A DNA stretch of 64,000 nucleotides from an uncultured Planctomycetales bacterium (GTDB lineage Bacteria > Omnitrophota > Gorgyraeia > Gygaellales > Profunditerraquicolaceae). Below, one piece after another: positions 3,855-53,449 of this stretch; the stretch's first letter is position 1; each line of letters opens with the position of its first letter. The notes beneath the pieces are model-generated. The model worked only from the letters and a program-made list of their open reading frames with translations. It searched no databases and was not told the origin of the DNA. The stretch is taken from assembly GCA_964603585.1 (NCBI GenBank), contig CAZRVK010000001.1:438541-502540 (forward strand), written 5' to 3'. A program made the position numbers and the translations under genes.

Positions 3855-5303
3855 TTAAATAATCGGCAACCTGGTTTCCTGCATCAAATATTTATCCATA
3901 AAATGAGCGCAGCGCCTGCCTTCTGAAATAGCCCAAACCACTAATGATTGCCCGCGCCTCATATCCCCCGCAGAGAACACTTTTTCTATATTAGTCATAT
4001 AATTTTCCTGCGTACGCACATTACCCCGCGCATCAAAATCGATTTTCAGATCATTCAGTAACCCTGAATGCTCCGGATGCAAAAATCCTACAGCCAGGAT
4101 CACTAAATCTGCGCTGATCTCAAACTCACTGCCAGGGATCTCCCGCATCACCGGGCAAGGATTCTTATCTGTTTTACTGAACTCCACCTTAACACAAGAA
4201 AGCTTCTTCACCAAACCTTTTTCTCCAATGAAACGCTTGGTCAATACTGCCCAATGCCGCTGCCCCCCCTCAATATGGCTGGAGGATACCTTTAAAAGCA
4301 ACGGATATTTCGGCCAGGGTTGAGACGGCATCCTGCATTCTTCGGGTTTAGGTAAGACTTCAATTTGCACGACACAACTTGCGCCCTGGCGATGAGCAGT
4401 CCCCACGCAATCAGCCCCGCTGTCCCCACCGCCAATAACTACCACCTGCTTATCTTTAGCATCAATTAAATTATCCTGTGCAATAAACTCTTTACTGACA
4501 CGCCTGTTCGACTGTGACAGATAATCCATAGCAAAATATATCCCCTTAAGATCCCTTCCTTCTATTAACAGGTCCCGGGGAATGCGCGATCCTCCAGCCA
4601 AACAGACCGCATCGAAATCTTCCAGAAGCTTACTGGCCGGATAATCAGGCCCGACATTGACGCCCGTCTTAAAAACAACCCCCTCTTCTTTCCAAATATC
4701 AATCCGCCTGTCCAGGATATGTTTCTCAAGCTTGAAATCCGGAATACCATATCTTAATATCCCGCCCACAGAACTATCCCGCTCAAAAACCGTTACATCA
4801 TGCCCGGCTAAATTTAGCTGTGCCGCAGCGGATAAACCGGCTGGCCCTGACCCAATAACCGCTATTTTCTTACCGGTCCGGTATTCTATCTGCCTGGGTT
4901 TTATAAATCCGTTCTTAAAAGCCGTTTCTATAACCGCCAGTTCATTCTCCCGGACAGTGACCGGATCATCATTTAGGCCTAATACACAGGAATATTCACA
5001 CAACGCCGGACAAACCCTGCCGGTTATTTCGGCAAGGTTATTTGTCGCCTCCAGCAATTTAAACGCCTCAACCCAGTTCCCGTGAAAAACAAGATCGTTC
5101 CATTCGGGGATATAATTGCCTATCGGACAACCCCAATGGCAAAACGGGGTTGAACAATCCATACAACGGCTGGCTTGATCAATAGAGTGTTCAGGCAAAC
5201 GTTGTTTATAAACATCTTTGAAATCCCCTATGCGCTCGCAGACCGGCCTATAGTCACCGCCTTTCCGCGCTACTTTCAAAAAACCTCTTTCTTCACCCAT
5301 CAA
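3855..5303 (-). CDS. gltD: glutamate synthase small (beta) subunit, NADPH/FAD oxidoreductase
   Basis: N-terminal 4Fe-4S Cys cluster (CMDCSTPFCHWGCP) and IAVIGSGPAGLSAA dinucleotide fold. Overlaps gltB by 11 bp. Confidence 0.9.
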   Translation of the reverse strand: MMGEERGFLKVARKGGDYRPVCERIGDFKDVYKQRLPEHSIDQASRCMDCSTPFCHWGCPIGNYIPEWNDLVFHGNWVEAFKLLEATNNLAEITGRVCPALCEYSCVLGLNDDPVTVRENELAVIETAFKNGFIKPRQIEYRTGKKIAVIGSGPAGLSAAAQLNLAGHDVTVFERDSSVGGILRYGIPDFKLEKHILDRRIDIWKEEGVVFKTGVNVGPDYPASKLLEDFDAVCLAGGSRIPRDLLIEGRDLKGIYFAMDYLSQSNRRVSKEFIAQDNLIDAKDKQVVVIGGGDSGADCVGTAHRQGASCVVQIEVLPKPEECRMPSQPWPKYPLLLKVSSSHIEGGQRHWAVLTKRFIGEKGLVKKLSCVKVEFSKTDKNPCPVMREIPGSEFEISADLVILAVGFLHPEHSGLLNDLKIDFDARGNVRTQENYMTNIEKVFSAGDMRRGQSLVVWAISEGRRCAHFMDKYLMQETRLPII

Positions 5304-8300
5304 TAGCCTCCGCGATATTAAGCTTTTCCTCCAACTTTGCCCCCTCTAAAATGCGTTTATATTCAAGCGGCATGACTCTGACAAATCTCTTAAGTTCAAC
5401 GTTCAGGGCATCCAGGATTTTCTTGGCTTTTGTACTTCTGGTATATTTGACATGATGGCTAAGCAGATGATATATTGTATCCCGGTCATCTGCTTTAATA
5501 TGCTCCAATTCCACCATATCCAGGTTACACCTTTCTTTAAAACTGGCATCTTCATCATAAACATAAGCTATGCCACCAGACATGCCTGCGGCAAAATTCC
5601 TTCCAGTCCGGCCAAGGATTATTACTCTACCCCCGGTCATATACTCACAGCCATGGTCTCCGACGCCCTCGACTACCGCATATAACCCTGAATTACGAAC
5701 GCAAAACCTTTCTCCTGCGATCCCGTTTATATAGGCCTCGCCGGATATTGCCCCATAAAAGGAGGTGTTACCGGCAATAATGTTGTCGTCGGCTTTATAA
5801 TTTATTCGACTATCCGGATAAACTATGATCTTTCCTCCTGAAATACCTTTTCCGATATAATCATTAGCCAAACCTTCCAATTCAAAAGTTATCCCTTTTG
5901 CCAGAAACGCGCCAAAACTCTGCCCGGCTATGCCTTTAAATTTAAAATACAGGGCATCTTCCAAAAGTACATTATCCCCGCACCTGCGACAAACCTCCCC
6001 GCTCAACAATGCACCGGCAGCCCTATTCGTATTATTGATATTCAATAAAGCCTTGACCGGCTCATTCTTCTGAAGGCAATTCTCCCATATTTGTATAAGT
6101 TTTCGGTCAAGGACATTATCTAAGCCACTATCTTGTTTTTCCTTGCAATAACGCCCGATATGCTCCGGAAGTTTGGGATTATAAAGTATCCGTGAGTAAT
6201 CGACGCCTTTAGCCTTTTCCGGAACGATCTTTCGGTTTAACTCCAACAGATCACATCTGCCGATCATCTCATTTACCGTCCTTAACCCAAGATCAGCCAT
6301 AATCTGGCGCAACTCTTGGGCTATAAAATGGAAGTAATTCACAATATATTCCGGCCTGCCCCGGAACCTTTTCTGTAAAATACTGTCTTGAGTGGCCACT
6401 CCCAGAGAACAATTATTTAAATGGCAGTGCCTTAACATCACGCAACCGATGACAACCAGGACCGCAGAACAAAAACCATACTCTTCTGCTCCAAGCAAGG
6501 CGGCAATTGCCACATCGCGTCCAGTACGCATCCCTCCGTCAGCTTGCAGGCGGACACGGGAGCGTAAATTATTAAGTAAAAGCGTCTGGTGCGTTTCTGC
6601 CAGGCCTAATTCCCAGGGAAGGCCGGCATATCGAATGGAACTTCTGGGTGATGCGCCTGTTCCCCCGTCTCCTCCGGAAATAAGGATCATATCCGCATGC
6701 CCTTTGGCAACTCCAGCGGCAACCGTTCCTACGCCAACTTCAGATACAAGTTTTACACTGACCCTGGCAACAGGATTGGCATTCTTTAGGTCAAATATCA
6801 GCTGTGCCAGGTCCTCGATGGAATATATATCATGGTGCGGAGGAGGAGAGATCAAAGTAACCCCTTGAGTGGTATACCGGGTACGGGCAATTATTTCACT
6901 GACCTTATGCCCAGGCAATTGCCCTCCCTCGCCAGGCTTAGCCCCTTGAGAGATCTTTATTTGTATCTCGTCGGCATTAACCAGATAATTTATCGTTACG
7001 CCAAACCTGCCAGAAGCAACCTGTTTGATCGCGCTCCGGCGGGAATCTCCATTCGGTAAACTGACGAACCTATTGGGATCCTCACCGCCCTCCCCAGTAT
7101 TGGATTTCCCACCAATACGGTTCATCGCAATAGCGATAGTCTCATGTGCGGCGCCGCTTATCGAACCAAAACTCATCGCCCCGGTTACAAAACGTTTTAA
7201 AATGCTGTGCACCGGCTCAACCTCATCGATAGGAACAGGTGTTATCTTCTTGCCGCCAGAGGCTGACCCGGAGAATTCAAGCAGGCTTCTTAAGGTAACT
7301 GGATTACTCGACTGGTCATTAATCAACCGGGCAAACTCCTTATATTTCTCATAATCACCACGGGAAGTAGCCTCTTGTAAAGCAGCAATACTCTCCGGCC
7401 GCCAAAGATGGAACTCCCCATCTTTCTTCCACTGATAAACCCCTCCGCTCGAAAGATAATCTGCGTCCGTGCTTCTTAGGGCATACGCCTGACGATGCCT
7501 TTCTAAAGTCTCTTCTACGATCCCTTCTAAAGATACCCCGCCGATCCTGGAAACCGTGCCGGTAAAATATCTGTCGATAAACTCATTATCTAAGCCCAAA
7601 GCCTCAAAAATCTGTGCGCCGCGATAACTCCTAAGGGTGGAAATACCCATTTTAGAAAGTATCTTCAATATCCCGTCGGTTATCGCCTTAATATAATTCT
7701 TTAAAGCCGTCTTGGGTTCCAGTTTGATTTCTTTTTGCCTGACCAGATATTCCACGGTTTCATAGGCAAGATAAGGATTGATACAATCAGCCCCATAACC
7801 GAAGAGCAGCGCAAAATGATGCACCTCTCTGGGCTCTGCACTCTCCACCACTAAAGCTACCTGTGAACGGACAGTTTTTCTTACTAAATACTGATGAATA
7901 GCACTGACCGCTAAAAGCGCCGGTAAAGCAACATTATCCTTATCTATACCGCGGTCGCTTAAGATTATAAAAGAATACCCTTGTTCAATAGCGTACTCGG
8001 ATTCAAAACAAACCCTATCCAGAGCTTGCACAAATCCTTCTTTACCGCTTAAAGCATCAAAAAAAGTATAGATCGTCTTGGTCTTAAAACTGTTTATACT
8101 GATATCCCGTATTTTTTCAAGGTCAGTATTGGTCAAAATCGGATTCCTTACTCTAAGTTTATGGCTATGCTTAGGGCTCTGTTCCAGGATATTCTTTTCC
8201 GGGCCGATGAAACTTTCTAAACTCATCACCAGTTTTTCTCTAATTGAATCTATGGGAGGATTAGTCACTTGAGCAAAAAGCTGGCGAAAATAACTATAAA

Positions 8301-9870
8301 GAAGTTGCGGCTCTTTTGATAGAAAGGCATAGGCAATATCGCTCCCCATAGAACCTACAGGCTCTTTAGCCTCAACCGCCATAGGTTTAATGATCATTTT
8401 CAGGTCTTCACGGGAATAGCCGAAAGCCTTAAGTTTAGGGAGCAAATCTTGTGATATCCTGTTACTTGTTTCCGAACCAATAAGTTTATCCAGATCAACC
8501 ATACTTTCATCATTCCATTTACCGTACGGAAACCTCCGGGCCACATCCTGCTTTATTTGAGAATCTTCGATTATGCGCCCATTCCGGGTATCGATAAAGA
8601 ACATTTTGCCTGGTTCAAGCCTGCCGGAAACCTTAATATTTGCCGGATCAATATCCAAAACACCGACCTCGGAAGCCATAACCACAAAATCATCATGAGT
8701 CAAAATGTAACGTGCAGGCCGAAGGCCGTTTCTATCCAAAATCGCCCCAATATTATAACCATCCGTAAAGGCAATGGCTGCCGGTCCATCCCAAGGTTCC
8801 ATAAAACAAGCATGGTATTTATAAAAATCCCGAAGTTCCTTGCTTATATGCTTGTCATGTTCCCAAGCCGCAGGGACTAACATCATCATTGCATGTTCAA
8901 GAGTCCGGCCGGACAAGACCAAAAGCTCGAAGAAATTATCCATTGCCGCTGAATCACTCCCCCCCTCAACGATAACCGGCTTGAGCTTCTCGATATCCAT
9001 ACCAAAAAGTTCACTGGTCAGCAACCGCTCCCGGGCTTTAACCCCGTTTACATTGCCCCGTAAAGTATTGATCTCACCATTGTGCGCCAGGAACCTGAAA
9101 GGCTGGGCTAAATTCCAGGTTGGGAAAGTATTGGTGGAATAACGCGAATGCACCAGGCACAAAGCGCTCTTTAAACTTTCATCCCTAAGGTCAAGAAAGA
9201 AATCATCTATTTGCTCGGGCATAAGCAGCCCTTTATAAGAGAAGGTACGGGCTGAAATATTAGTGATATAAAAGTATCCCTTCTGCTTCAGATCAGAGCC
9301 CAGGATGATATTCTCGATCTCTTTTCTAATACAGTACAGCCTTCGTTCAAAAACAAGTTCATCTTCCCCTGGCAGCTCTGTATTTACTCCGCCTGTATGC
9401 TTAGCGCGTTCGGGCACACTCTTTGCGACAAAGACCTGTTCAATTACGGATTGAGTACTTTTTGCGCCTTCGCCGATCACAGAATCATCGATTGGCACCT
9501 GGCGCCATCCCAGCAACACCTGGCCTTGATCTTCGATTACCTTATTGAATACTTCTTTGCAAAACCTGCGTTCCGAAATATCTGGGGGCAGGAATATCAA
9601 TCCACTGCCATAAGATCCTGGAACAGGCAACTCAATATTGATAGCTGCAGCCGCTTTTTTAAAGAAATCATGCGGGGTCTGGATCAAGATCCCTGCGCCG
9701 TCCCCGGTCTTTGGATCAGAACCAACCGCCCCCCGGTGCGCAAGACGATGCAAAACCTCTACCCCTTGTTTAATGATAGCGTTGGAGGAATGACCTTTGA
9801 TATTACAGACAAACCCTACTCCACAGGAATCATGTTCGAATCCCGGATCATATAAGCCTTGTTTTTTCAT
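5293..9870 (-). CDS. gltB: glutamate synthase large subunit
   Basis: 1525 aa. N-terminal CGVGFV Ntn-amidotransferase start, followed by FMN and GXGXG domains. Confidence 0.92.
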   Translation of the reverse strand: MKKQGLYDPGFEHDSCGVGFVCNIKGHSSNAIIKQGVEVLHRLAHRGAVGSDPKTGDGAGILIQTPHDFFKKAAAAINIELPVPGSYGSGLIFLPPDISERRFCKEVFNKVIEDQGQVLLGWRQVPIDDSVIGEGAKSTQSVIEQVFVAKSVPERAKHTGGVNTELPGEDELVFERRLYCIRKEIENIILGSDLKQKGYFYITNISARTFSYKGLLMPEQIDDFFLDLRDESLKSALCLVHSRYSTNTFPTWNLAQPFRFLAHNGEINTLRGNVNGVKARERLLTSELFGMDIEKLKPVIVEGGSDSAAMDNFFELLVLSGRTLEHAMMMLVPAAWEHDKHISKELRDFYKYHACFMEPWDGPAAIAFTDGYNIGAILDRNGLRPARYILTHDDFVVMASEVGVLDIDPANIKVSGRLEPGKMFFIDTRNGRIIEDSQIKQDVARRFPYGKWNDESMVDLDKLIGSETSNRISQDLLPKLKAFGYSREDLKMIIKPMAVEAKEPVGSMGSDIAYAFLSKEPQLLYSYFRQLFAQVTNPPIDSIREKLVMSLESFIGPEKNILEQSPKHSHKLRVRNPILTNTDLEKIRDISINSFKTKTIYTFFDALSGKEGFVQALDRVCFESEYAIEQGYSFIILSDRGIDKDNVALPALLAVSAIHQYLVRKTVRSQVALVVESAEPREVHHFALLFGYGADCINPYLAYETVEYLVRQKEIKLEPKTALKNYIKAITDGILKILSKMGISTLRSYRGAQIFEALGLDNEFIDRYFTGTVSRIGGVSLEGIVEETLERHRQAYALRSTDADYLSSGGVYQWKKDGEFHLWRPESIAALQEATSRGDYEKYKEFARLINDQSSNPVTLRSLLEFSGSASGGKKITPVPIDEVEPVHSILKRFVTGAMSFGSISGAAHETIAIAMNRIGGKSNTGEGGEDPNRFVSLPNGDSRRSAIKQVASGRFGVTINYLVNADEIQIKISQGAKPGEGGQLPGHKVSEIIARTRYTTQGVTLISPPPHHDIYSIEDLAQLIFDLKNANPVARVSVKLVSEVGVGTVAAGVAKGHADMILISGGDGGTGASPRSSIRYAGLPWELGLAETHQTLLLNNLRSRVRLQADGGMRTGRDVAIAALLGAEEYGFCSAVLVVIGCVMLRHCHLNNCSLGVATQDSILQKRFRGRPEYIVNYFHFIAQELRQIMADLGLRTVNEMIGRCDLLELNRKIVPEKAKGVDYSRILYNPKLPEHIGRYCKEKQDSGLDNVLDRKLIQIWENCLQKNEPVKALLNINNTNRAAGALLSGEVCRRCGDNVLLEDALYFKFKGIAGQSFGAFLAKGITFELEGLANDYIGKGISGGKIIVYPDSRINYKADDNIIAGNTSFYGAISGEAYINGIAGERFCVRNSGLYAVVEGVGDHGCEYMTGGRVIILGRTGRNFAAGMSGGIAYVYDEDASFKERCNLDMVELEHIKADDRDTIYHLLSHHVKYTRSTKAKKILDALNVELKRFVRVMPLEYKRILEGAKLEEKLNIAEAIDG

Positions 9871-10115
9871 ATCTTTACCTCATTCACAGAAATACCCAGT
9901 TTCTTTATTTTAGCGCGCAAAGTGTTCCGGTTAATACCCAATAACCTGGCAGCCTTGATCTGATTGCCAAAAGTTATTGCTAATGTATTTTTGATCAATG
10001 ATTTATCCAGCGCATCCAGCATAATATGGTATATTTTGCCTTCCTGCTGTTTAAGAAAAAACCTGTCCAGCTCTGCAAGCGCCTTTTCTATTTCCTTTGC
10101 CTTTTCATCATTCAT
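9867..10115 (-). CDS. Fis-family helix-turn-helix protein (stand-alone)
   Basis: 82 aa. C-terminus AARLLGINRNTLRAKIKKLGI is a Fis-type HTH. Overlaps the gltB start by 4 bp. Confidence 0.6.
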   Translation of the reverse strand: MNDEKAKEIEKALAELDRFFLKQQEGKIYHIMLDALDKSLIKNTLAITFGNQIKAARLLGINRNTLRAKIKKLGISVNEVKI

Positions 10116-10195
10116 TTTTTGTCTAAAAATTAATCACCCGTGTTTAACAAAAAAACTTTACTTGGGGTGCTGATCTCATAAGAACTTATCGCGCC

Positions 10196-12391
10196 TTAAC
10201 TGATAAACAGCATTTCCCTGTACTTAGGCAGGTCCCAGACATTATCCGGAACAACTTCTTCCAATGCATCAACGTGCTTGCGGATATGTTCCATTAACGG
10301 CTTAAGCTCATGAAAATAAAGCTGTGCGCGTTTCTCATTACTAAGAGGCCTGGCGCGCTCAAGCAATTTGACCATCTCTTGCGCATTGCGCCTGACATAA
10401 TAGATCTTTGCTACGATATCGCTCAAATGATATTTCTTATCCTCTAAAGCTGCTTTATCAATCTTAAGGCCGGCGGCATTTTTTAAAGCCACCAATTCAG
10501 AAAGTGAGCCGGCAAGAAGTTTTTCATAAATATATCCGGCCGGAACAACGGAAGCGTTGACCATTTCATTTAAGGTATTAGCTTCGATCTCTAAAGTAAG
10601 GTTATACATATGCACCCAGATATGATTCCGGGCAAGTATTTCTTCCTTAGAATAAACATTATATTTCTCGAATAACGCTATATTCTTTTCGTCTGCCAAA
10701 GCCTCTAACGCCTGGTAAGTTGAAGCGATATTCGGCAATCCTCTTTTCTTGGCCTCTTTAATCCATTCCGGCGAATAATTATTCCCCTCGAAACGAATAT
10801 CCTTGGTTTGTTTGACAATAGTACTAACCACTTTTAAGACCGCAGAATTGAAATCCTTACCCTGGGAACTTGCCATTTTGATCTGACCAGACACATAATC
10901 AAGGCTCTCGGCAATTATCGTATTCAATACCGCGATTGCCGTTGATATATTCTGCGATGAACCTACGGCACGAAATTCAAATTTGGCCCCGGTAAATGCA
11001 AACGGCGAAGTACGGTTCCTATCCGTAGAATCTTTATTGAAACTTGGCAAACGGCTGATACCCAGATCAATAATATCCCGTTTTGATACTTTTGCCTTCA
11101 CCCCAGCCTCCAGCATATTTAAGACCCCGGTTAATTGTTCTCCCAGGAATACACTAATGATCGCCGGAGGAGCTTCATTTGCGCCTAAACGGTGCTCATT
11201 ACCGGCTAAAGCCACTGACGCACGCAAAAGGTCCGCATGCAAATATACCGCCCTTAAAACCGCAGCCAAAACCGTTAAGAATTGCAGATTGTCCTGTGGA
11301 GTTTCCCCCGGATTAAGCAGATTATTCCCTTTATCATCCGACAAAGACCAATTAAGATGTTTACCGCTGCCATTAATACCGGCAAAAGGCTTTTCATGCA
11401 ACAAGCATACCAGATTATGCCGCAAAGCTACTTTTTTAAGCAACTCCATAAGCAGTTGATTGTGGTCCGCGGCAAGATTAGACTCTTCGAATATAGGAGC
11501 AAACTCGTATTGATGCGGAGCAACTTCATTATGGCGGGTCATAAGCGGAATACCCAGTTTATATGCCTCCTCGGCAACCTCAAACATAAAATTAACCACT
11601 CGCTCTTTGATCGTGCCGAAATACTGGTCTTCCAACTGCTGGCCTTTAGGGCTTGGTGCACCGATCAAAGTACGTCCGGTCATCACCAGATCCTGTCGCA
11701 AATTGTAATAATTCTTATCGATCAAAAAATACTCCTGCTCCGGTCCGCAGGTAGAAAAAACCTTTTTAATATCCTTATGCCCAAAAAGCTTAAGTAATCC
11801 CAAAGCGGATTTATTTAAAGCATCATCAGACCGTAAAAGCGGCAGCTTTTTATCTAAAGAAGCGCCATGATATGAAATAAATATGCTCGGGATACAAAGG
11901 GTCTTACCGAGGGTGCTTTCAATGATAAAAGCCGGGCTGGAAGGGTCCCATGCAGTATAACCCCTTGCCTCAAAGGTAGCACGTATCCCTCCGGAAGGAA
12001 AACTTGAGGCATCCGGTTCACCCTGGATTAATTTACTCCCGGAAAATTTCTCGATCACCTTTGCCTGTCCAGCAAAAGAAATGAAACTATCATGCTTCTC
12101 CGCAGTAAGCCCGGTCATCGGCTGGAACCAATGCGTATAATAAGTTGCCCCTTTTGCTATCGCCCAGTCCTTCATGGCATTAGCGATCTCATTAGCCTGG
12201 GTTAGACTTATGTTTTTTCCTTCCAGGATCCAGGACTGAAAAGCCTCAAAGGTATTTTCGGATATATGCTTGCGCATCGCCTCAAGGCTAAAGGTATTCT
12301 CTCCGAAATAAGCAGAAACTTTTTTGGCCGGGCAAGTTTTATCCAACTCGACGCTTTTAATCTTAAACAATGCTTTTTGTCTTATACTCAT
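10196..12391 (-). CDS. glnN: glutamine synthetase type III
   Basis: 731 aa, the GSIII size class, with GS catalytic-domain motifs (GINGSGKHLNWSL). Follows amt-glnK. Confidence 0.85.
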   Translation of the reverse strand: MSIRQKALFKIKSVELDKTCPAKKVSAYFGENTFSLEAMRKHISENTFEAFQSWILEGKNISLTQANEIANAMKDWAIAKGATYYTHWFQPMTGLTAEKHDSFISFAGQAKVIEKFSGSKLIQGEPDASSFPSGGIRATFEARGYTAWDPSSPAFIIESTLGKTLCIPSIFISYHGASLDKKLPLLRSDDALNKSALGLLKLFGHKDIKKVFSTCGPEQEYFLIDKNYYNLRQDLVMTGRTLIGAPSPKGQQLEDQYFGTIKERVVNFMFEVAEEAYKLGIPLMTRHNEVAPHQYEFAPIFEESNLAADHNQLLMELLKKVALRHNLVCLLHEKPFAGINGSGKHLNWSLSDDKGNNLLNPGETPQDNLQFLTVLAAVLRAVYLHADLLRASVALAGNEHRLGANEAPPAIISVFLGEQLTGVLNMLEAGVKAKVSKRDIIDLGISRLPSFNKDSTDRNRTSPFAFTGAKFEFRAVGSSQNISTAIAVLNTIIAESLDYVSGQIKMASSQGKDFNSAVLKVVSTIVKQTKDIRFEGNNYSPEWIKEAKKRGLPNIASTYQALEALADEKNIALFEKYNVYSKEEILARNHIWVHMYNLTLEIEANTLNEMVNASVVPAGYIYEKLLAGSLSELVALKNAAGLKIDKAALEDKKYHLSDIVAKIYYVRRNAQEMVKLLERARPLSNEKRAQLYFHELKPLMEHIRKHVDALEEVVPDNVWDLPKYREMLFIS

Positions 12392-12421
12392 ATAATCCTC
12401 CTCAAAAGTAAAAATAAAATG

Positions 12422-12763
12422 TTATCCTATTGCTACCGGGCCGCGTTCTTCAGTACGTATACGCACGCATTCCAGAAGGTCTAAAACAAAGATCTTGCCA
12501 TCTCCGGTCTCTTGGGTCTTGGCCCCACTCACAACCGCTCGAATCGTCGGCTCTAAAAAACTGTCATTCACTGCGATCTCCAGCCTAATCTTGCGTAAAA
12601 GGTTACCCGTCTCTTTCGCCCCGCGATAGATCTCGGTTACCCCCATCTGCCGGCCATGCCCCAGCACCTCACTCACAGTGATAAGATTCACCTCTGCTTT
12701 ATATAATTCTTCTTTTACCGATTCTAATTTATCCGGTTGAATAATCGCTATAACTAATTTCAT
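12422..12763 (-). CDS. glnK: P-II nitrogen regulatory protein
   Basis: 113 aa. MKLVIAIIQPDKLESVKEEL and a T-loop region GHGRQMG. Lies directly downstream of amt. Confidence 0.85.
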   Translation of the reverse strand: MKLVIAIIQPDKLESVKEELYKAEVNLITVSEVLGHGRQMGVTEIYRGAKETGNLLRKIRLEIAVNDSFLEPTIRAVVSGAKTQETGDGKIFVLDLLECVRIRTEERGPVAIG

Positions 12764-12859
12764 TGAACACCTCCGCTTTTTATCTAATTAAATCATTTAA
12801 ACCAGCCGGAATCAGCAGAAATAACCCAGGATCACCCAAAGAATGTATAGCCTGCCGTA

Positions 12860-14089
12860 TTATTCCAAAACAGTGTATGCCCTTTCGCGATGCTGGGTAA
12901 GGTCCAAACCCATTAACTCGGACTTTTTATCTACCCTGACACCAATAAATAAATCAACTATCTTATATATCACGATCGTGATCACGCTCGTATAAACAAT
13001 GGTTATCCCTACCGCAGCTAACTGCACTAATAATTGTTTTGGATTGCCGAAAAACAGACCGTCCGCACCAGCCGCATTTACTGTTTTGGAGGCAAATAAC
13101 CCGGTTGCGATTGCACCCCAAATCCCGCCAATACAATGGACGCCAAAAGCATCAAGAGAATCATCGTATCCGAATTTAGGCTTAATTACTGTAACCGCAA
13201 TAAAACAAAAAACACTGACCAGCAAACCAATAATGACAGCCGGGACCACACTGACAAAACCTGCGGCAGGAGTGATCGCAACCAAACCGGCAACTGCGCC
13301 TGAACATAAACCGAATATCGTAGGCTTGCCATTATGATACCATTCAATCAATGCCCAGCTTAACCCGGCAGATGCTGCCGCGGTATTAGTAACTACAAAA
13401 GCGTTGACCGCCAACCCGTTTGCCGCAAGCGCACTGCCGGCATTGAAACCAAACCAGCCGAACCACAATAAACCTGTACCCAGGACTACGAAAGGCATAT
13501 TATGCGGAGTAGGCACATTCTTTTCTAAATTAGTCCGTTTGCCTAAAACAACTGCCGTTATAAGTGCGGCGATCCCGGCATTAATATGCACGACTGTGCC
13601 TCCGGCAAAATCTAAAGCCCCCCAATTACGCAGGAACCCTCCGATTGCCCATACCCAATGACAAAGCGGGGCATAAACAAAAGTTGCCCAAAGTAAAGTA
13701 AAAACAAGAAACGCCGAGAATTTCATCCGTTCGGCAAAAGCTCCAATGATCAAGGCCGGGGTGATGATCGCAAACATACATTGAAAGATCATGAACGCCT
13801 GATGCGGAATAGTTCCGGCATAATCCGGGTACGGCTCTAAACCTACCCCGGATAAACCTGCCCATGAAAACCCTCCCCAAAACCCTTTTCCCGGGGCAAA
13901 AGACAGGCTATATCCGATCAAAACCCAATGAATACTTAAGATACACATTACGATAAAACACTGCATCAAAACACTAAGGACGTTTTTTCTCCTGACCATA
14001 CCCCCATAAAAAAAAGCCAAAGCCGGGGTCATAAGCAGAACCAAAGCCGATGAAATTAAGACCCACGCCGTATCCCCTGAATTTATCAT
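12860..14089 (-). CDS. amt: ammonium transporter
   Basis: 409 aa multi-TM protein with Amt/MEP signatures (DFAGGTVVHINAG, GAFAERMKF). Confidence 0.9.
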   Translation of the reverse strand: MINSGDTAWVLISSALVLLMTPALAFFYGGMVRRKNVLSVLMQCFIVMCILSIHWVLIGYSLSFAPGKGFWGGFSWAGLSGVGLEPYPDYAGTIPHQAFMIFQCMFAIITPALIIGAFAERMKFSAFLVFTLLWATFVYAPLCHWVWAIGGFLRNWGALDFAGGTVVHINAGIAALITAVVLGKRTNLEKNVPTPHNMPFVVLGTGLLWFGWFGFNAGSALAANGLAVNAFVVTNTAAASAGLSWALIEWYHNGKPTIFGLCSGAVAGLVAITPAAGFVSVVPAVIIGLLVSVFCFIAVTVIKPKFGYDDSLDAFGVHCIGGIWGAIATGLFASKTVNAAGADGLFFGNPKQLLVQLAAVGITIVYTSVITIVIYKIVDLFIGVRVDKKSELMGLDLTQHRERAYTVLE

Positions 14090-14142
14090 ATCATGCTCCT
14101 TGATTTAACCTTTCCACGGATCCTGTTTTGCTTTTTCATCTC

Positions 14143-14186
14143 AAAAAAAAGAGACGACTTCCCTTTGCCAGGTTGAAGACGTCTCT
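14143..14186 (-). terminator. intrinsic terminator 2 in the amt leader
   Basis: On the minus strand, AGAGACGuCUUC...GAAGuCGUCUCU forms a 12-bp stem with one mismatch, followed by UUUUUUUU. It sits about 50 nt upstream of the amt ATG. Confidence 0.55.
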
Positions 14187-14252
14187 GTCTTTTTGAAAAA
14201 ATAAGGCCCTTCTCAAAGCACTCATTGCTTGAAAAAGGGCATCTTTGTCCCT

Positions 14253-14285
14253 AAAAAAAGAAGCCCCAAAACTATTTGGGGCTTC
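14253..14285 (-). terminator. intrinsic terminator 1 (for the Zn-ribbon gene and/or an amt leader attenuator)
   Basis: On the minus strand, GAAGCCCCAAAUAGUUUUGGGGCUUC is followed by UUUUUUU. Confidence 0.6.
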
Positions 14286-14314
14286 TTTGCCTCTTTGACA
14301 TCGCTGTCAAAGTG

Positions 14315-14342
14315 AGTATATCATTTTCTTTTTTCTTGTCAA
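14315..14342 (-). promoter_or_regulatory. sigma70-like promoter upstream of the amt leader
   Basis: On the minus strand, TTGACA, a 16-nt spacer, then TATACT. It is followed by the palindrome CTTTGACAgcgaTGTCAAAG. Confidence 0.4.
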
Positions 14343-14376: not shown

Positions 14377-14580
14377 TTAACGTCCTTCGTTCTTACGCTT
14401 CGAGTAACAATCCTTGCAATATATCGGACGGTCTTCTCTGGGTTTAAACGGGACCTCGCATTCTTTTTTGCACTCCGAACAAACTGCCTTGTGCATTTCT
14501 CTTGGCCCGCCGAATCCACCACCCTGGTATCCCATTGTTTCCTCCTTCGCCTTAGTTAACCCCAATACTGTCTTCATCAT
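14377..14580 (-). CDS. CxxC-x17-CxxC zinc-ribbon protein
   Basis: 67 aa. CSECKKECEVPFKPREDRPIYCKDCYSKRK matches the VPFKP..DRP.YC..C family signature. Confidence 0.5.
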   Translation of the reverse strand: MMKTVLGLTKAKEETMGYQGGGFGGPREMHKAVCSECKKECEVPFKPREDRPIYCKDCYSKRKNEGR

Positions 14581-16325: not shown

Positions 16326-16597
16326 TTGACGATAATTAGTGACGTATAGGTTTAATACCGGCCTTACCCCGGTAATGGCAAGGATTTAATTGTACTCCCC
16401 TCTATGCTGACTGTCTATATATATTTAGGATAAAATCAGCCTCAAAGATCATTATTTTAGGGTTGTATCTTGCTTAACTTATTTAATTACAGATACTTAA
16501 GAATAGCAACTTGATCGTCCAATAAAAACCATACATTCTGGCTTACTTGAAATCGATAACTTAGTGTGCTATATTTATATAGGAAATAGAGCTTACT

Positions 16598-16678
16598 GAT
16601 AAAGGCAAACTAGCAGCAATGCTGGGACGCAAAGCTTCCGGCCCAAGGTCTTGGGCAGCGGGGTTACCAAAGAAGCAA
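16598..16678 (+). ncRNA. c-di-GMP-I (GEMM) riboswitch
   Basis: AAAGGCAAAC, then a P2 hairpin AGCA-GCAA-UGCU with a GNRA loop, then GGGACGCAAAGCUUCCGGCC...GGCAGCGGGGUUACCAAAG. This is a near-consensus match to the Vc2-type aptamer. Confidence 0.72.
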
Positions 16679-16721: not shown

Positions 16722-16750
16722 GCCCAGCAAAAAATGCTGGGCTTTTTTAT
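16722..16750 (+). terminator. riboswitch expression-platform terminator 2
   Basis: GCCCAGCAaaaaaUGCUGGGC followed by UUUUUUAUU, 12 nt before the ATG. Confidence 0.55.
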
Positions 16751-16762: not shown

Positions 16763-17059
16763 ATGGCTAAGAAAATAAGAGTTTTTACCTTAATTCTGGG
16801 AGCTATATTCCTGCTTACCTACCAATACGCTTGGGCAGGAGACAGCTACTCCATAAAAGTTTCCTGTGTAATACCGGCGATACCCGGATTTAACGCCCCA
16901 ACCATCATTGAGAAAACAGCCGTTAAACCTAAAGCGGAAGAACCTGTATATAAGGAATCTAATAATAAAGGACTGATCCAGAAGGAAACAAAAAAAGAAA
17001 TTATCTCAAGAGGACAGGAACCAACTTTAATAGCCTTACAAACAGTATATGTAAAATAA
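16763..17059 (+). CDS. small secreted protein (signal peptide), unknown function
   Basis: 98 aa. N-terminal hydrophobic signal LILGAIFLLTYQYAWAG. The only plus-strand gene in the area and the riboswitch target. Confidence 0.45.
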   Translation: MAKKIRVFTLILGAIFLLTYQYAWAGDSYSIKVSCVIPAIPGFNAPTIIEKTAVKPKAEEPVYKESNNKGLIQKETKKEIISRGQEPTLIALQTVYVK

Positions 17060-33522: not shown

Positions 33523-34581
33523 TTAATCTTGTTTTGCCAACTTCCGCTTCAAACTTTCCACTTCATTCTTAAGCGCGATAATCCGCTCTTCTCTGTCCAT
33601 ACTGATCCGATAAAAAATCTCCAATTCATGCAAACGTTTTTTTGCTTCTTCTTCTATTTTCTTGCGTTCAGTAATATCCTCAACCAGTTCAATAAATCCC
33701 GTACAAACACCATTCTTATCATACGTACCCACAGCCCAGATATTAACATAAAAATAACTTCCGTCCTTACGCACACCTTTAGCCTCGATCTTTTCTGTAG
33801 GTTTACCGCGCATAACAATACTACCCGGGCAATGCGCACAAATCCCATCACGATTCTCAAATTCAGAGAAACACAATTTCCCCTCAAAATCCTCTGGAGA
33901 CCTGTTAAACAAACGGCCAATATGGCTATTGACCTTTAAAATCCTGTAATTAGTGTCCATAATGGAAATCCCCATATTAATATTCTCAAAAATACCCATG
34001 AACCGTTCTTGGCTCACACGCAATGCATTTTCCATAACCCTGCGTTCAGTGATATCTTTATCCACGCCGAGATAACCTTTGAAATTCCCACTCTTATCAA
34101 ATATAGGCACACCGTTGGTAAGTAGGCAAATCTTTCTGCCGGTTTTTTGGATATTCCAATTCTCCAAATCCTTGATCGGAGCTTTATTTGCCAGGATCTC
34201 GAAGAAAATAGCTGACACTCTTTTTGCTTCATCCGGCGGCATAAAATCGAATGGGGTTTTTCCTATCATTTCTTCGGGAGAACGCCCAAAGAATTCAGAA
34301 CTCTTATATGAACTATATGTATAAACACCTTTCTCGTCTACCTCCCAAACCCAATCCGCTATACTAAATATCAAATTCTCCAATCTTTGCTCATTATCAT
34401 GTAATACATCTTCGATCTTTTTACACTCCGCTACTTCCTGCCCCGATTCAACCGCCTTAGGATTAACAGACTGATACGATTTAATCTTTCCCGCCCAAAC
34501 AGTAAAAATTGCAAGCAAGTAATTTATAAGGCTTTTCAAGGTTAAACGGCTGTTTTTATTTACGGCTTTTTTATCTACCAT
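33523..34581 (-). CDS. PAS-domain protein without output domain
   Basis: Two PAS folds. C-terminus KRLHELEIFYRISMDREERIIALKNEVESLKRKL. Confidence 0.65.
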   Translation of the reverse strand: MVDKKAVNKNSRLTLKSLINYLLAIFTVWAGKIKSYQSVNPKAVESGQEVAECKKIEDVLHDNEQRLENLIFSIADWVWEVDEKGVYTYSSYKSSEFFGRSPEEMIGKTPFDFMPPDEAKRVSAIFFEILANKAPIKDLENWNIQKTGRKICLLTNGVPIFDKSGNFKGYLGVDKDITERRVMENALRVSQERFMGIFENINMGISIMDTNYRILKVNSHIGRLFNRSPEDFEGKLCFSEFENRDGICAHCPGSIVMRGKPTEKIEAKGVRKDGSYFYVNIWAVGTYDKNGVCTGFIELVEDITERKKIEEEAKKRLHELEIFYRISMDREERIIALKNEVESLKRKLAKQD

Positions 34582-34588
34582 CGTCTGA

Positions 34589-35971
34589 TCAACTCGTATT
34601 TCCCAATTTTTTCTTCAACCTCACGATTTCTTCCTTAAGCTCAATAATACGATCTTCCCGGCCTAAACTCGCCCTATAGAATATTTCCAGTTCCTGCAAA
34701 CGCTTGCGGGACTCTTCCTCCAGGTTCCTGCGTTCAGTAATATCCCGGAAATACCACACCCGGCCGTAATATTTCTTATCCGAATCAAGCATCGGTGCCG
34801 AATAACGCTCAAAGAACCTGCCGTCTTTTAAGGCAACAACATCTGCGCACACTTCATCGCGAACCGCATAAAGATGTTGTACCTTCGCAATGAATTCTTC
34901 AGGATCATCAAGTTTACTCATTACCGATTCCAACGTGTGTTGATCGGATTTTGTTTCGATTACATCAGGGGGGATCCCCCACATATCAACAAACCGCTGA
35001 TTAAAAGACAAAATCTCCCCTTTTTCATTCACAATGAGGATCCCGTCAATAGAAGATTCCTGCTGCGTCCGCAAAATAATATTATTAAATAACAATGCCT
35101 CTTCCGCCTTTTTACGTTCGGTGATATCCTCAAAGATCACGCAGAATTTTTCTTTTGTCTGAAAAGGACGATACACATTACAGTGATAGATCTTTTTGGT
35201 CGGAGAGTGATACAGCTCAAATTCCTGGCTTTTCCCGGTCACTGCCACCTCGCCATACCTTTTGACCCATTCGGGCTCGGTTTCAGGCCAAACCTCATGG
35301 ACAGTTTTGCCACTCACCTCTAAATATTTTACGCCTGTTATAATTTCATATGCGGTATTGATATAGACAAATCGATAGCTGATAAAATTGCCCGCATCAT
35401 CAAACACTGATTCAAAAACCACAAACGCATTTATCATACTCTTGAGCATCGAACTCATTTCCTGTTCCCTTTGCTGCCGCTCTTCCTCGGCTTTTTTTAG
35501 TTCAGTAACATCGTCATAAACAGCGACTATTTCGCCTGAAGGCAGCTTATAAACGTAATTTGCCACCCACTGCGAAACACGTCCATCATGATAAAATGAA
35601 ATCGGGCAATGCTGCGGCTCTCCGGTCTTCCAGACGCGCGAAAATGCCTCAAATAAACCTATTTCTTTCACCCCCGGAAAAACCTCAAGAACACTCTTAC
35701 CGATTATCTGGTCACGGCTTAATTTACTATTTAGCTCACCACTCTTATTTATATCCTTAAAGATAAAATCCCGGCCTTCCTCTTTTGCCTCATAAATAGC
35801 GACACCACTCGTCATATTATCAAAAAGTTCTTTAAAATGCACATTGCTATTGCGCAATGCCTGCTCGGATTCTTTGAGCTTAAGGATATCATTTTTAAGT
35901 TCAATTACCTGCCCTTGCAAAAGTCTTACTTGCTCAAAGAGTTCTTCCCGGCTAATATCTGTCTCTGACAT
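34589..35971 (-). CDS. multi-PAS-domain protein without output domain (paralog)
   Basis: Three PAS folds. C-terminus KRLQELEIFYRASLGREDRIIELKEEIVRLKKKL is nearly identical to that of the neighbouring paralog. Confidence 0.65.
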   Translation of the reverse strand: MSETDISREELFEQVRLLQGQVIELKNDILKLKESEQALRNSNVHFKELFDNMTSGVAIYEAKEEGRDFIFKDINKSGELNSKLSRDQIIGKSVLEVFPGVKEIGLFEAFSRVWKTGEPQHCPISFYHDGRVSQWVANYVYKLPSGEIVAVYDDVTELKKAEEERQQREQEMSSMLKSMINAFVVFESVFDDAGNFISYRFVYINTAYEIITGVKYLEVSGKTVHEVWPETEPEWVKRYGEVAVTGKSQEFELYHSPTKKIYHCNVYRPFQTKEKFCVIFEDITERKKAEEALLFNNIILRTQQESSIDGILIVNEKGEILSFNQRFVDMWGIPPDVIETKSDQHTLESVMSKLDDPEEFIAKVQHLYAVRDEVCADVVALKDGRFFERYSAPMLDSDKKYYGRVWYFRDITERRNLEEESRKRLQELEIFYRASLGREDRIIELKEEIVRLKKKLGNTS

Positions 35972-36413: not shown

Positions 36414-36755
36414 CTATACAGCGATATCGCCTTTTTCTCCGGTGCGGATCCTTATAGCATCATCTACAGGATAAACAAATATCTTGCCATCGCCAATTTC
36501 ACCGGTCCTGGCGGTTTTAGCTATAGAATTTACGACTTTATCGAAATCACTGTCCTTAACAATTATTTCGATTTTTACTTTCGGCAAAAAATTAACTTTG
36601 TATTCCCGGCCGCGGAACTGCTCAACCAAGCCTTTTTGCCGGCCATGCCCTTCAATATGCGTGATCATCATCCCGGGGCAGCAATGCAATGTTTCTAAAG
36701 CCTCGGTAACTCCTTCTAACCTTTCTACCCGAATAACTGCCTCTATTTTCTTCAT
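36414..36755 (-). CDS. glnK: P-II nitrogen regulatory protein (second copy)
   Basis: 113-aa P-II fold (MKKIEAVIRVERLEGV...GDGKIFVYPV). Downstream of amt2. Confidence 0.85.
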   Translation of the reverse strand: MKKIEAVIRVERLEGVTEALETLHCCPGMMITHIEGHGRQKGLVEQFRGREYKVNFLPKVKIEIIVKDSDFDKVVNSIAKTARTGEIGDGKIFVYPVDDAIRIRTGEKGDIAV

Positions 36756-36811
36756 TTTGCTCCTTCCTCCCCTCTGCCTGAAAGCGAAACAAGAAAAATC
36801 AGGTTAATGGG

Positions 36812-38179
36812 TCAATTTTGATTCGTTGTATAAAAATTCGGATAAGCCGGAGTTCCATGTTCAATAACATCCAGCCCTTTTAATTCTTCTTCCGGCGAAA
36901 CTCTGACACCAAAACATTTATCCATCAGCTTAAAGGTAATTAATCCCAGACTAAAAGCCCAAGCCACACAAACGGCCGCTCCAATCACTTGAGCGATTAA
37001 CTGCCCCCAACCTCCCCCGTAGAATAACCCTTTAATTAATGGCGCAGTAGTTGTCCCCAAGCCATATGTTCCGTCAGCAAAAAGCCCCACACTAATAAGG
37101 CCCCAGACACCATTTACAGCATGCACACTGACCGCACCAACCGGATCATCTACCTTCATTGCTTCCCAAAAATATACGCTTACAACTACCAAAACACCGG
37201 CTATCGCACCAATAACCACAGCTGCCCACGCCTCTACCCAGGCACAAGGCGCGGTAACGGCGACCAATCCTGCCAGACAACCGTTTAGCATCATCCCCAG
37301 ATCCCACTTCTTTGTCTTCATAAATACCAAAAGAATAGCAACCGCCGCTCCTGCTGCTGCTGCCAGATTAGTATTCACCGCAATAACCGCAATCCTTAAT
37401 TGATGCGCAGAAAATGTAGAGCCTGGATTAAAACCAAACCATCCAAACCATAATATGAATGTACCCAGTGCCGCAAGGGTTATACTATGCCCGGGGATAG
37501 CCTTTGATTTTCCGTCTTTGCCTATTTTCCCGAACCTCGGACCAAGGACAATAGCACCGGCTAAACCAACAAAACCCCCTATAGTATGCACGACTCCGGA
37601 TCCGGCAAAATCAACATGTCCTGCTCCAAAAGGAAGTTTAGAAAGCCATCCTCCGCCCCAAACCCAGTGACCAAATATAGGATAGATGATCGCCGAAACT
37701 GCAAGGCTATATAAAAAATACGCCTTGAATTTTAATCTTTCTGCAACTGCTCCGGAGACAATCGTTGCCGCGGTTCCGGCAAAAACCATCTGCCAAAAGA
37801 ACACGAGATACTTTCCTACATCATAATTTGCCCCGTGTAAGAACCAACCCGATGTGCCGATTATCCCTTTGTAGTCATTTCCCATCATAAAAGCAAAACC
37901 AACAGCCATAAAAACAAGTGAAGCGACAACGAAATCAATCGTGTTTTTAGCCATAAGGTTAGTCGCATTTTTTGCCCGGCAAAACCCGGCCTCAACCATC
38001 GCAAACCCTGCCTGCATAAAAAAAACCAGGAATCCACAAACCAACACCCATACATAATCAACCGGTGCCTGTGGATTTTGCGCCAGCGTTTCGGCGCCTC
38101 CAGGATCCTGGGCAAAGCAGACCCCGCTAACCCAGGCAATCACTGCAGTAAATAAGAATATGAATATTCTTAGAAACAT
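36812..38179 (-). CDS. amt: ammonium transporter (second copy, with signal peptide)
   Basis: 455 aa. Amt signatures (DFAGSGVVH, GAVAERLKF). Confidence 0.9.
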   Translation of the reverse strand: MFLRIFIFLFTAVIAWVSGVCFAQDPGGAETLAQNPQAPVDYVWVLVCGFLVFFMQAGFAMVEAGFCRAKNATNLMAKNTIDFVVASLVFMAVGFAFMMGNDYKGIIGTSGWFLHGANYDVGKYLVFFWQMVFAGTAATIVSGAVAERLKFKAYFLYSLAVSAIIYPIFGHWVWGGGWLSKLPFGAGHVDFAGSGVVHTIGGFVGLAGAIVLGPRFGKIGKDGKSKAIPGHSITLAALGTFILWFGWFGFNPGSTFSAHQLRIAVIAVNTNLAAAAGAAVAILLVFMKTKKWDLGMMLNGCLAGLVAVTAPCAWVEAWAAVVIGAIAGVLVVVSVYFWEAMKVDDPVGAVSVHAVNGVWGLISVGLFADGTYGLGTTTAPLIKGLFYGGGWGQLIAQVIGAAVCVAWAFSLGLITFKLMDKCFGVRVSPEEELKGLDVIEHGTPAYPNFYTTNQN

Positions 38180-38199
38180 GGTTATTCCTCCTTTCTAAT

Positions 38200-38967
38200 T
38201 TAGAATGCATATACTAATGTACCCCCGCCGTAAAAACGCGATTTTTGATTGGCATGCGACTCGCTGGCTAAATCGCCAAAGGGAATCGAATAATTCAGGT
38301 TAGGGGAAAACTTCAGGTTTTTAGTTAACGGCATAGTCAACCCCACCTTTAAAGCAACATCTCCGCCATCTCCGTCGATGAATTGATTATGATTAAAACC
38401 TACATGGCCCGATAAATCCAAACTAAAATCATAACCTTTCAGCACAAACGGCAAGCTATGAGATGCATTGACTACAGTGTAATTGCCTAAACCTCCTCCA
38501 CTGGAAGGATTGCCATAGTCACGGTAAAAATATACCGAAGGGCTCAAGAACAAATTAGGGAAAGAAACCCCAGCATAGAATTCACGGCTGAATTTATTGG
38601 TGCCGGTGAAATCATAATACGTATGCCCAAAAGATATGCTGAAGTTCTTAAACCCGTAAGTATAATCAATGATATAGTCAAACTCATCCGAGTTTAAATC
38701 ATCGCTATTTTGCAAATCCTCATTGACCCACATACCCAGTTTCAGCTTGCCAAACTTTGTTTCTGGAGTTGATACATAAACTTCCGGCTGTAGTACAGCA
38801 TCCCTGTCCATAATGAACCCTCTCCAGATATACTGGCTAAACACTGATAAACCACCGCTTACTTCGACTTTCAGGTCAGACAACAAACCGGTTTTTTCTT
38901 CCTGTCCAAATACATTTGTCACCACCACCAAAAGAAACATAAATACTCCTATTGCTCTCTTCCACAT
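38200..38967 (-). CDS. TorF/Gcw_chp-family putative outer-membrane porin
   Basis: Signal peptide. FSQYIWRGFIMDRDAVLQPEVYVS matches the Gcw_chp N-terminal pattern. C-terminal aromatic residue. Lies 20 bp upstream of amt2. Confidence 0.6.
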   Translation of the reverse strand: MWKRAIGVFMFLLVVVTNVFGQEEKTGLLSDLKVEVSGGLSVFSQYIWRGFIMDRDAVLQPEVYVSTPETKFGKLKLGMWVNEDLQNSDDLNSDEFDYIIDYTYGFKNFSISFGHTYYDFTGTNKFSREFYAGVSFPNLFLSPSVYFYRDYGNPSSGGGLGNYTVVNASHSLPFVLKGYDFSLDLSGHVGFNHNQFIDGDGGDVALKVGLTMPLTKNLKFSPNLNYSIPFGDLASESHANQKSRFYGGGTLVYAF

Positions 38968-39267
38968 GCTTCCCTCCTTATTTAAAACCGTTTTATACGT
39001 AGTTTTTCCTCATAAATATTGTCAACCTGATACCGCATCCATCTTGGAGCGCCCCTGATCCAACGAGTACTCTTTTGTACTCAAAAACCCAAGGAGAGTG
39101 CCTCCTGTTCTTTTGAGGCACCTATGCCCCAAACACACTACTACAAACAAAAACGCCCTTTCGGCACTCAACATTAGCGCCTTAAGGACGTCTACGCCCT
39201 GCCACTTGCCACTTCTCTGCAGCAAATGAATAAACCAATTTTTAATCGGATATTACATTTTCTCCGG

Positions 39268-53428: not shown

Positions 53429-53449
53429 AAACTGATACCCCCCTTTCTT

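Follow-up and report, generated by a model that had tools for sequence, protein, structure and literature searches.

ANTAR proteins act on RNA targets that have been defined as two mini-hairpins with hexanucleotide loops carrying A at position 1 and G at position 4 (A1/G4 hexaloops), of which the second (P2) overlaps a terminator (Ramesh et al. 2012, PMC3369931). In the eut leaders the linker between the first hairpin (P1) and P2 measures 5 to 12 nucleotides (nt), and linkers of 3 or 14 nt impaired EutV (PMC3369931). The same study already predicted, in 2012, ANTAR sites upstream of genes for PII, Amt, glutamine synthetase (GS) and glutamate synthase (GOGAT), and stated that no GAF-ANTAR protein had been characterised (PMC3369931); the passages of a 2025 review that were searched name none either. 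In Geobacter sulfurreducens, the GnfK/GnfR system acts by antitermination in the leaders of nifH, glnK and amtB (Ueki and Lovley 2010, PMC2995071), and the conserved GnfR site CAGGCAANGGCGCC reads GGC-AANGGC-GCC (PMC2995071). In the current study, we have analysed the leader of an amt-glnK-glnN-gltBD operon in a 64,000-nt stretch of contig CAZRVK010000001.1 from an uncultured member of Candidatus Omnitrophota; the whole stretch (64 kb) is referred to as the window.

We propose that this leader is a three-stage attenuator of the ANTAR type, most likely served by a GAF-GAF-ANTAR protein encoded at 39268..40494 of the same window, and we put the probability of this reading at roughly 72%. The observation itself is real and well supported by the sequence. 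The leader contains the following elements, all of them on the minus strand.

14342..14337, minus strand: -35 element TTGACA
14320..14315, minus strand: -10 element TATACT, with a 16-nt spacer and a TG extension
14312..14293, minus strand: palindrome CTTTGACAgcgaTGTCAAAG
14312..14293, minus strand: mini-hairpin P1, CUUUGAC-AGCGAU-GUCAAAG, 7-bp stem with an A1/G4 hexaloop
14291..14280, minus strand: mini-hairpin P2, GGC-AAAGAA-GCC, -2.8 kcal/mol, putative antiterminator of T1
14288..14253, minus strand: terminator T1, GAAGCCCC..GGGGCUUC followed by U7, -21.6 kcal/mol
14251..14237, minus strand: mini-hairpin P2', GGG(A)C-AAAGAU-GCCC, bulged, with an A1/G4 hexaloop and overlapping the 5' arm of T2
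14240..14196, minus strand: terminator T2, GCCCUUUUUC..GAGAAGGGC then CUUAUUUUUU, -17.4 kcal/mol
14215..14202, minus strand: candidate (speculative) mini-hairpin P1'', UGAG-AAGGGC-CUUA, with an A1/G4 hexaloop from the 3' arm of T2, 0 kcal/mol
14191..14176, minus strand: mini-hairpin P2'', AAGAC-AGAGAC-GUCUU, -3.2 kcal/mol, within the 5' arm of T3
14186..14143, minus strand: terminator T3, AGAGACG-U-CUUC..GAAG-U-CGUCUCU followed by U8, -17.5 kcal/mol
14101..14096, minus strand: Shine-Dalgarno sequence AAGGAG
14089..14087, minus strand: amt start codon

A preliminary description of this DNA had placed a TTGACA-16-TATACT promoter upstream of amt, and this sigma70-type promoter is present at 14342..14315, where it scored 11/12 in a promoter scan. 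The same description had noted that sigma54 signals are lacking, and no sigma54-like site was found near the leader. Two terminators had been reported behind the promoter. Both exist, T1 with its U7 tract as described (14285..14253 without the A/U extension), but a further terminator between them (T2) had been overlooked, so the leader holds three. T1 drawn in full is AAAGAAGCCCCAAA-UAGU-UUUGGGGCUUCUUU, running into the U-tract, with A/U pairing that extends the stem to 14 bp. In T3, the second of the two reported terminators, the U8 tract and its position, ending 53 nt ahead of the amt ATG, were given correctly, but the stem described as 12 bp has 11 pairs over 12 positions, broken by a single U-U mismatch and topped by a 3-bp apical stem. 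The U-run of T2 begins 4 nt past its stem. As predicted from folding, all three are stable G+C-containing hairpins with U-tracts, as expected of intrinsic terminators, and they are packed in ~170 nt of a leader of ~250 nt overall. The entire leader folds at -82.9 kcal/mol (z = -6.05), and none of 200 dinucleotide shuffles folds as well. A generic terminator scan called none of T1, T2 and T3. T1 likely escaped it because an A-run ahead of its stem base-pairs with the U-tract, consuming the required tail; T2 and T3 have interior mismatches, to which is added in T2 the stem set back from the U-run.

The four hexaloops of P1, P2, P2' and P2'' (AGCGAU, AAAGAA, AAAGAU and AGAGAC) all carry A1 and G4, as in known ANTAR targets. 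P2 begins one base past P1, and its loop and 3' arm form the 5' arm of T1; the pairs P2/T1, P2'/T2 and P2''/T3 overlap in the same way, so that the two members of each pair are mutually exclusive. Two neighbouring stem-loops, P1 and P2, precede T1, and T2 and T3 each have a single clear mini-hairpin. The search for a dual-hairpin ANTAR motif that the preliminary description had suggested was thus positive, and the perfect palindrome that it had listed as a feature of its own, while real as a sequence, is best read as P1 of the ANTAR target. The mini-hairpins reach 0 to -3 kcal/mol and the terminators -17 to -22 kcal/mol; with the mini-hairpins far weaker, termination would be the default and only a protein could shift the equilibrium. 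Between P1 and P2 the linker is 1 nt with full stems, 3 nt if P1 is cut to 5 bp and 5 nt if P1 is cut to 3 bp. The orthologous leader L105 has 6 nt at this place, and the related leaders L001, L107 and L111 have 4 to 5 nt. A loose dual-hexaloop pattern scan of the window gave 43 matches versus ~29 in mononucleotide shuffles, in which U-runs are under-represented, and was not used as evidence. The apical loop AUAGUU of T1 was also considered as P1 of the next site and ruled out, the loop at that place in L105 having only 3 to 5 nt. On the opposite strand, a promoter-like TTGACA-18-TATCAT (14295..14324, plus strand; 11/12) would run antisense to the upstream zinc-finger gene; it occurs because the P1 palindrome has TTGACA on both strands, and is probably incidental.

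Nearly all of the closest Amt proteins (85 to 92% identity) come from metagenome-assembled genomes named Omnitrophota or Omnitrophica, which fits the placement of the window in Candidatus Omnitrophota. The same sequence as here is also present in the Logan assemblies SRR15237810 and SRR15237811. L105, with an Amt 91% identical and another gene upstream (coding for an HD-domain protein), has an alignable leader that keeps the -35 and -10 hexamers identically, together with P1, P2, P2', P2'' and all three terminators (-17 to -22 kcal/mol). Its P1 loop AGUGAU is changed at position 3 with A1 and G4 kept, its P2 is GGU-AAAGAA-GCC, and its P2'' is AAGAC-AGAGGC-GUCUU, again with A1 and G4 kept; over the four loops AGUGAU, AAAGAA, AAAGAU and AGAGGC, A1/G4 is invariant relative to the window. 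A 19-nt block in the P2' region, GGACAAAGAUGCCCUUUUU, is 100% identical in L105, with several differences 5' of it, and the counterpart of P1'' is UAAA-AAGGGC-UUUA. The hairpins of the window and L105 were compared sequence by sequence, as the MAFFT alignment shifted the 3' arm of T2 by one column. T1 and T3 each show a compensatory change from A-U to G-C in L105, and T2 is there a fully paired 15-bp stem in which G-U pairs and the mismatch have turned into A-U pairs. T3 is also kept in L115 with an A-U to G-C change, that locus having only 49 nt of upstream sequence, identical to L105. In L104, a porin gene lies directly upstream of amt, at the end of the contig.

Other leaders are not alignable with that of the window and are alike in design. 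L001 has a sigma70 promoter, AAUAC-AAAGAA-GUAUU, a 4-nt linker and GAGAC-AUAGUU-GUCUU overlapping a terminator. The amt leader of L003 has ..AUUGAA.. plus GGGC-AUUGAA-GUCC, L106 has GGCAC-AUAGCA-GUGUC then ac-AUUGAC-gu, and L107 has AGCAC-AUGGAU-GUGCU then aac-GUUGAC-guu; a similar design is found in L109, L110, L111 and the leader of the type III GS gene (GSIII) of L108. Two tandem terminators occur in L001, L011, L017, L051, L082 and L111. Over nine independent P1-linker-P2 seeds, several of which were misaligned by MAFFT, the linkers measure 4 to 20 nt. A separate element, tGGTTACCAaa-N10-14-TTTTTACTTGTAt, stands ahead of ANTAR-type amt, GSIII and PII leaders in L002, L082, L083, L093, L106 to L109 and L112 (for example L107 2347..2385 and L108 4115..4150), and could represent a promoter of unknown type or a binding site for a transcription factor; TTGGTTAAYCAA is present near the ribosome-binding site in L106, L108 and L109. 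The amt leader of the window has its sigma70-type promoter in place of the tGGTTACCAaa element, and of this set of elements it holds only GGTTAAATCAA, at 14110..14100.

The overlap of a mini-hairpin with a terminator was also counted blind over 113 sequences (855 kb). Terminator-like hairpins of at most 52 nt and -11 kcal/mol or below were scored for a mini-hairpin with an R..G.. hexaloop and 3 bp or more that ends in the terminator 5' arm, with the leaders of amt, PII, GSIII, GOGAT, ANTAR and ORF255 genes (the last coding for a protein described below) as the nitrogen-gene class; the initial finder was too permissive, with many matches inside genes, and the thresholds were tightened before the enrichment test. 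Such a mini-hairpin was found at 50 of 73 terminators of nitrogen-gene leaders and at 56 of 320 other terminators (Fisher p = 7e-17), and with A only at loop position 1 the counts were 33/73 versus 28/320 (p = 4e-12). Within the window, 32 terminator-like hairpins passed the filter, and it accompanies 8 of them. Four of these are convincing, namely T1, T3 and those in the two leaders on either side of the ANTAR gene (the finder did not call T2); the remaining four, one inside the coding region of amt2 and three weak ones elsewhere, are probably due to chance.

The GAF-GAF-ANTAR open reading frame (ORF) that had been reported at 39268..40494 was recovered with Pfam as two GAF domains and an ANTAR domain (PF03861; E = 1.8e-19, 69.7 bits versus a cut-off of 27.3), on the minus strand, and a receiver domain was not found in it with Pfam. 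The best match of GAF1 is the GAF domain of PtsP (EI-Ntr; PDB 3ci6, E = 1.8e-21) and that of GAF2 is the GAF domain of NifA. The NifA GAF domain binds 2-oxoglutarate. The PtsP GAF domain binds glutamine (PMC4848567). The gene lies between two leaders of the same design as that of amt, as listed below.

40668..40541, minus strand: leader of the ANTAR gene itself
40668..40640, minus strand: own-leader promoter TTGACA-17-TAAACT
40616..40595, minus strand: own-leader P1-like hexaloop hairpin
40590..40577, minus strand: own-leader P2, GGGC-GAAGAA-GUCC, overlapping a terminator with U6 (40582..40541)
39268..40494, minus strand: GAF-GAF-ANTAR protein, 408 amino acids (Pfam)
39229..39149, minus strand: leader between the ANTAR gene and ORF255-amt2-glnK2, in a 300-nt gap
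39229..39202, minus strand: ORF255-leader P1, ..UGCUGC-AGAGAA-GUGGCA..
39200..39185, minus strand: ORF255-leader P2, aGGGC-GUAGAC-GUCCu, overlapping a terminator with U5 (39193..39151)
36414..38967, minus strand: second nitrogen unit, 3' of the ANTAR gene (Pfam)
38200..38967, minus strand: ORF255, secreted porin-like protein
36812..38179, minus strand: amt2 (Pfam)
36414..36755, minus strand: glnK2 (Pfam)

The ANTAR gene thus lies directly upstream of ORF255-amt2-glnK2. This adjacency of ANTAR, (porin) and amt/PII genes recurs with GAF-ANTAR homologues in L082, L111, L098 and L068, where the GAF-ANTAR gene directly precedes dual-hairpin leaders and amt or PII genes; in L111 the amt gene behind the dual-hairpin leader is the orthologue of the first amt gene (amt1). 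Four homologous loci (L081, L082, L083 and L093) share the own leader of the ANTAR gene.

Besides, this region shows further features. Proteins of ~255 to 267 amino acids precede amt in several Omnitrophota (window 38200..38967, L082 8485..9255, L110 1718..2482, L111 1682..2482 and L112 1660..2463); the window copy, ORF255, has a signal peptide and no Pfam match, and proteins of this type are probably outer-membrane channels working with Amt. In the gap between the ANTAR gene and ORF255, from 39112..39133 (minus strand) to ~39070, a second hexaloop hairpin UUUGGGGC-AUAGGU-GCCUCAAA competes with GGUGCCUC..GAGGCACU, and a directly following U-tract is lacking. Two PAS-only proteins (460 and 352 amino acids; 33523..35971, minus strand), in which Pfam found no output domain, are encoded directly 3' of the amt2-glnK2 terminator. 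Elsewhere in the window, a fluoride riboswitch (53448..53510, minus strand; 61.5 bits) and an nhaA-I RNA (52492..52553, minus strand; 37.3 bits versus a threshold of 37) lie ~1 kb apart.

The unit behind the amt leader spans 3855..14089 on the minus strand, with intergenic gaps of at most 96 nt, and no terminator-like hairpins were found in the gaps between its genes. These were assigned with Pfam and NCBIfam.

12860..14089, minus strand: amt
12422..12763, minus strand: glnK (PII)
10196..12391, minus strand: glnN (GS type III)
9867..10115, minus strand: ORF of 82 amino acids with a Fis-type helix-turn-helix (HTH)
5293..9870, minus strand: gltB (glutamate synthase large chain)
3855..5303, minus strand: gltD-like subunit

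The small ORF between glnN and gltB, of the Fis or NtrC C-terminal HTH type, overlaps the start of gltB by 4 nt, and its product may help to regulate nitrogen genes by binding DNA. Divergent from the radical-SAM gene that lies upstream of the amt leader, there is a c-di-GMP-I-GGC riboswitch (16595..16672, plus strand; Rfam 63.2 bits versus a gathering score of 59), followed by a terminator (16722..16742) and an ORF of 98 amino acids (16763..17059, plus strand).

Based on these features, we infer the following mode of action. By default, RNA polymerase starting from the sigma70-type promoter would halt at T1, T2 or T3. Under inducing conditions, an ANTAR antiterminator, most likely the GAF-GAF-ANTAR protein, would bind and stabilise the A..G.. 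hexaloop hairpins on the nascent RNA, using P1 and P2 for T1, P2' for T2 and P2'' for T3. As each mini-hairpin takes bases needed by the 5' arm of the terminator, the latter could not form, and transcription would read through into amt, glnK and the GS and GOGAT genes. Nitrogen limitation would thus lead to the blocking of each terminator in turn as the hairpins emerge, and the operon of the regulator would also be transcribed. The protein probably antiterminates both its own leader and that of ORF255-amt2-glnK2, the former of which would amount to positive autoregulation. The signal is presumably nitrogen status, sensed directly by both GAF domains, and low glutamine and/or high 2-oxoglutarate would be the likely trigger, given that the best matches of GAF1 and GAF2 are the glutamine-binding GAF of PtsP and the GAF of NifA, respectively. 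A more elaborate relay, which we regard as doubtful, can also be drawn: the GAF-GAF-ANTAR protein would sense glutamine and/or 2-oxoglutarate directly, defeat T1 through the canonical P1-P2 pair and T2 through P2', a single conserved hairpin, and the 3' arm of T2 freed in this way would form P1'', which together with P2'' would amount to another canonical dual-hexaloop site, by which T3 would be defeated. If so, each antitermination event would build the next binding site, giving a steep multiplicative response of the ammonium-assimilation operon, reinforced by the positive autoregulation of the regulator.

Several observations weigh against a three-stage ANTAR attenuator served by this protein. 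L105 is the only independent alignable orthologous leader. The P1-P2 linker is 1 nt, whereas a 3-nt linker impaired induction in the EutV system, and because the 5' arm of P1 starts 2 nt after the -10 element, a transcript from this promoter probably keeps ~3 to 5 bp of P1, that is GAC-AGCGAU-GUC or slightly more, unless read-through from the zinc-finger gene supplies the rest; the same arrangement of P1 and -10 element is seen in L111. A convincing P1 is lacking for both T2 and T3, P2' forms only with a bulge, and P1'' is predicted to have no stability. In the leaders on either side of the ANTAR gene, the P2 loop has G at position 1, not A, and the P1 loops of the own-leader sequences mostly lack G4. 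Besides, our view covers 64 kb of the genome, and the true regulator could be an ANTAR protein whose gene lies elsewhere. The leader might then be an ANTAR-type attenuator run by such a protein from outside the window (e.g., a REC-ANTAR response regulator like those of Geobacter or Firmicutes), with the GAF-GAF-ANTAR protein serving its own operon only, as the contrast between the A1 loops of P2 at amt1 and the G1 loops with a GGGC..GUCC stem around the GAF-GAF-ANTAR gene would suggest. We consider this unlikely. Position 1 of the P2 loop varies between A and G among orthologous leaders (AUUGAC in L106, GUUGAC in L107), and the amt leader of L003 joins the GGGC..GUCC stem to an A1 loop, for which reasons both flanking leaders were treated as members of the amt-leader class. 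The gene order of L111 also argues against an outside regulator, and the protein at 39268..40494 is the sole ANTAR ORF within the window.

A different explanation for the palindrome, which can be written CTTTGACA-gcga-TGTCAAAG, is that it is the DNA operator of a dimeric repressor over the transcription start, the hairpins being constitutive leaky terminators or insulators without regulated antitermination. Such an operator would fit a perfect 8+8 DNA palindrome placed 2 nt after the -10 element, so that transcription may leave out most of its 5' arm, a complementarity in L105 that reaches 10 bp, right up to the -10 element, and the presence of the Fis-type HTH gene within the operon. However, L105 has U-G as its outermost extra pair, and U-G does not count towards a DNA palindrome, and P1 of other relatives has G-U pairs (GGCAC/GUGUC, UGCUGC/GUGGCA), which argues that selection in this class acts on RNA. 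As an operator would also leave the A1/G4 hexaloops, the terminator-overlapping mini-hairpins and their enrichment unexplained, we find this reading improbable, and it would in any case be compatible with the ANTAR model. Operators of the TnrA/GlnR type have the form TGTNA-N7-TNACA; the palindrome has the opposite order of half-sites and was ruled out as one of them. It is more improbable still that the hairpins are plain 3' terminators of the zinc-finger gene (14377..14580) with the amt promoter further down, or belong to a riboswitch or a leader-peptide attenuator. While T1 lies ~90 nt past the stop codon of the upstream gene, a conserved sigma70 promoter stands upstream of the hairpins, the 53-nt interval between T3 and the ATG contains no promoter-like or sigma54-like site, and L105 has the same leader behind a different gene. 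No Rfam family, glutamine riboswitch and T-box included, reached its gathering threshold over the leader (gathering thresholds being applied to the whole window, and a limit of E = 10 to the leader), the best match there being a PyrR site with 27.3 bits versus a gathering score of 54. A 9-codon ORF (AUG UCA AAG AGG CAA AGA AGC CCC AAA UAG) does begin in the P1 loop, but it lacks a ribosome-binding site and differs in length between the leaders (4 codons in L105), by which leader-peptide attenuation was ruled out.

The antitermination of nitrogen genes by ANTAR proteins is already established, so the present results extend this knowledge and do not change it. What is new is the Omnitrophota host, the triple stacking and the tying of a GAF-GAF-ANTAR regulator to defined predicted targets. 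Little is known of how genes are regulated in the uncultured phylum Candidatus Omnitrophota, and the proposed circuit is a concrete and testable one for its core nitrogen assimilation (amt, PII, GS type III and GOGAT). It would also connect the GAF-ANTAR architecture to defined RNA targets, and since the GAF domains resemble the glutamine- and 2-oxoglutarate-sensing GAF domains of PtsP and NifA, the protein is a good candidate for learning how an ANTAR domain is switched by a small-molecule sensor. From the stacked triple terminator one can see how firmly a default 'off' state can be enforced.

As in the eut leaders controlled by EutV in Enterococcus faecalis and the regulons predicted in 2012, the locus described here combines a pair of A1/G4 hexaloops, a P2 that is exclusive with the terminator and several sites per regulon, and as in those regulons its targets include genes for an ammonium transporter, PII, glutamine synthetase and glutamate synthase. 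In contrast to these systems, the window leader stacks three terminators with a clear P1 and P2 pair at the first only. The linkers of the window class (1 to 6 nt) are shorter than those of the eut leaders (5 to 12 nt), and the likely regulator is a GAF-GAF-ANTAR protein and not a phosphorylated REC-ANTAR protein, in a host of the phylum Omnitrophota. NasR/nasF of Klebsiella, NasT/NasS of Paracoccus, Pseudomonas and Bradyrhizobium, and AmiR/AmiC likewise have an ANTAR protein controlled by a ligand and not by phosphorylation, and hexaloops before a leader terminator in nitrogen-assimilation operons. Those systems sense nitrate, nitrite or amides through a NIT domain or partner proteins, whereas the window has a predicted tandem GAF sensor and core ammonium-assimilation genes as targets. 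The system with which the preliminary description had compared this locus, GnfK/GnfR, also involves premature terminators in nitrogen-gene leaders, including that of glnK-amtB, which in Geobacter are relieved by an ANTAR protein, and the window P2 (GGC-AAAGAA-GCC) shares with the GnfR site the GGC..GCC stem and the A1/G4 loop logic. The ANTAR-type antitermination design of that comparison is therefore supported, but GnfR belongs to the response regulators, is paired with a kinase and acts on targets whose promoters depend on RpoN/GnfM, whereas the window has a sigma70-like promoter, a one-component GAF-GAF regulator and an unrelated host organism. Overall, the leader would operate in the manner of the EutV, NasR and GnfR systems, without belonging to the GnfK/GnfR cascade.

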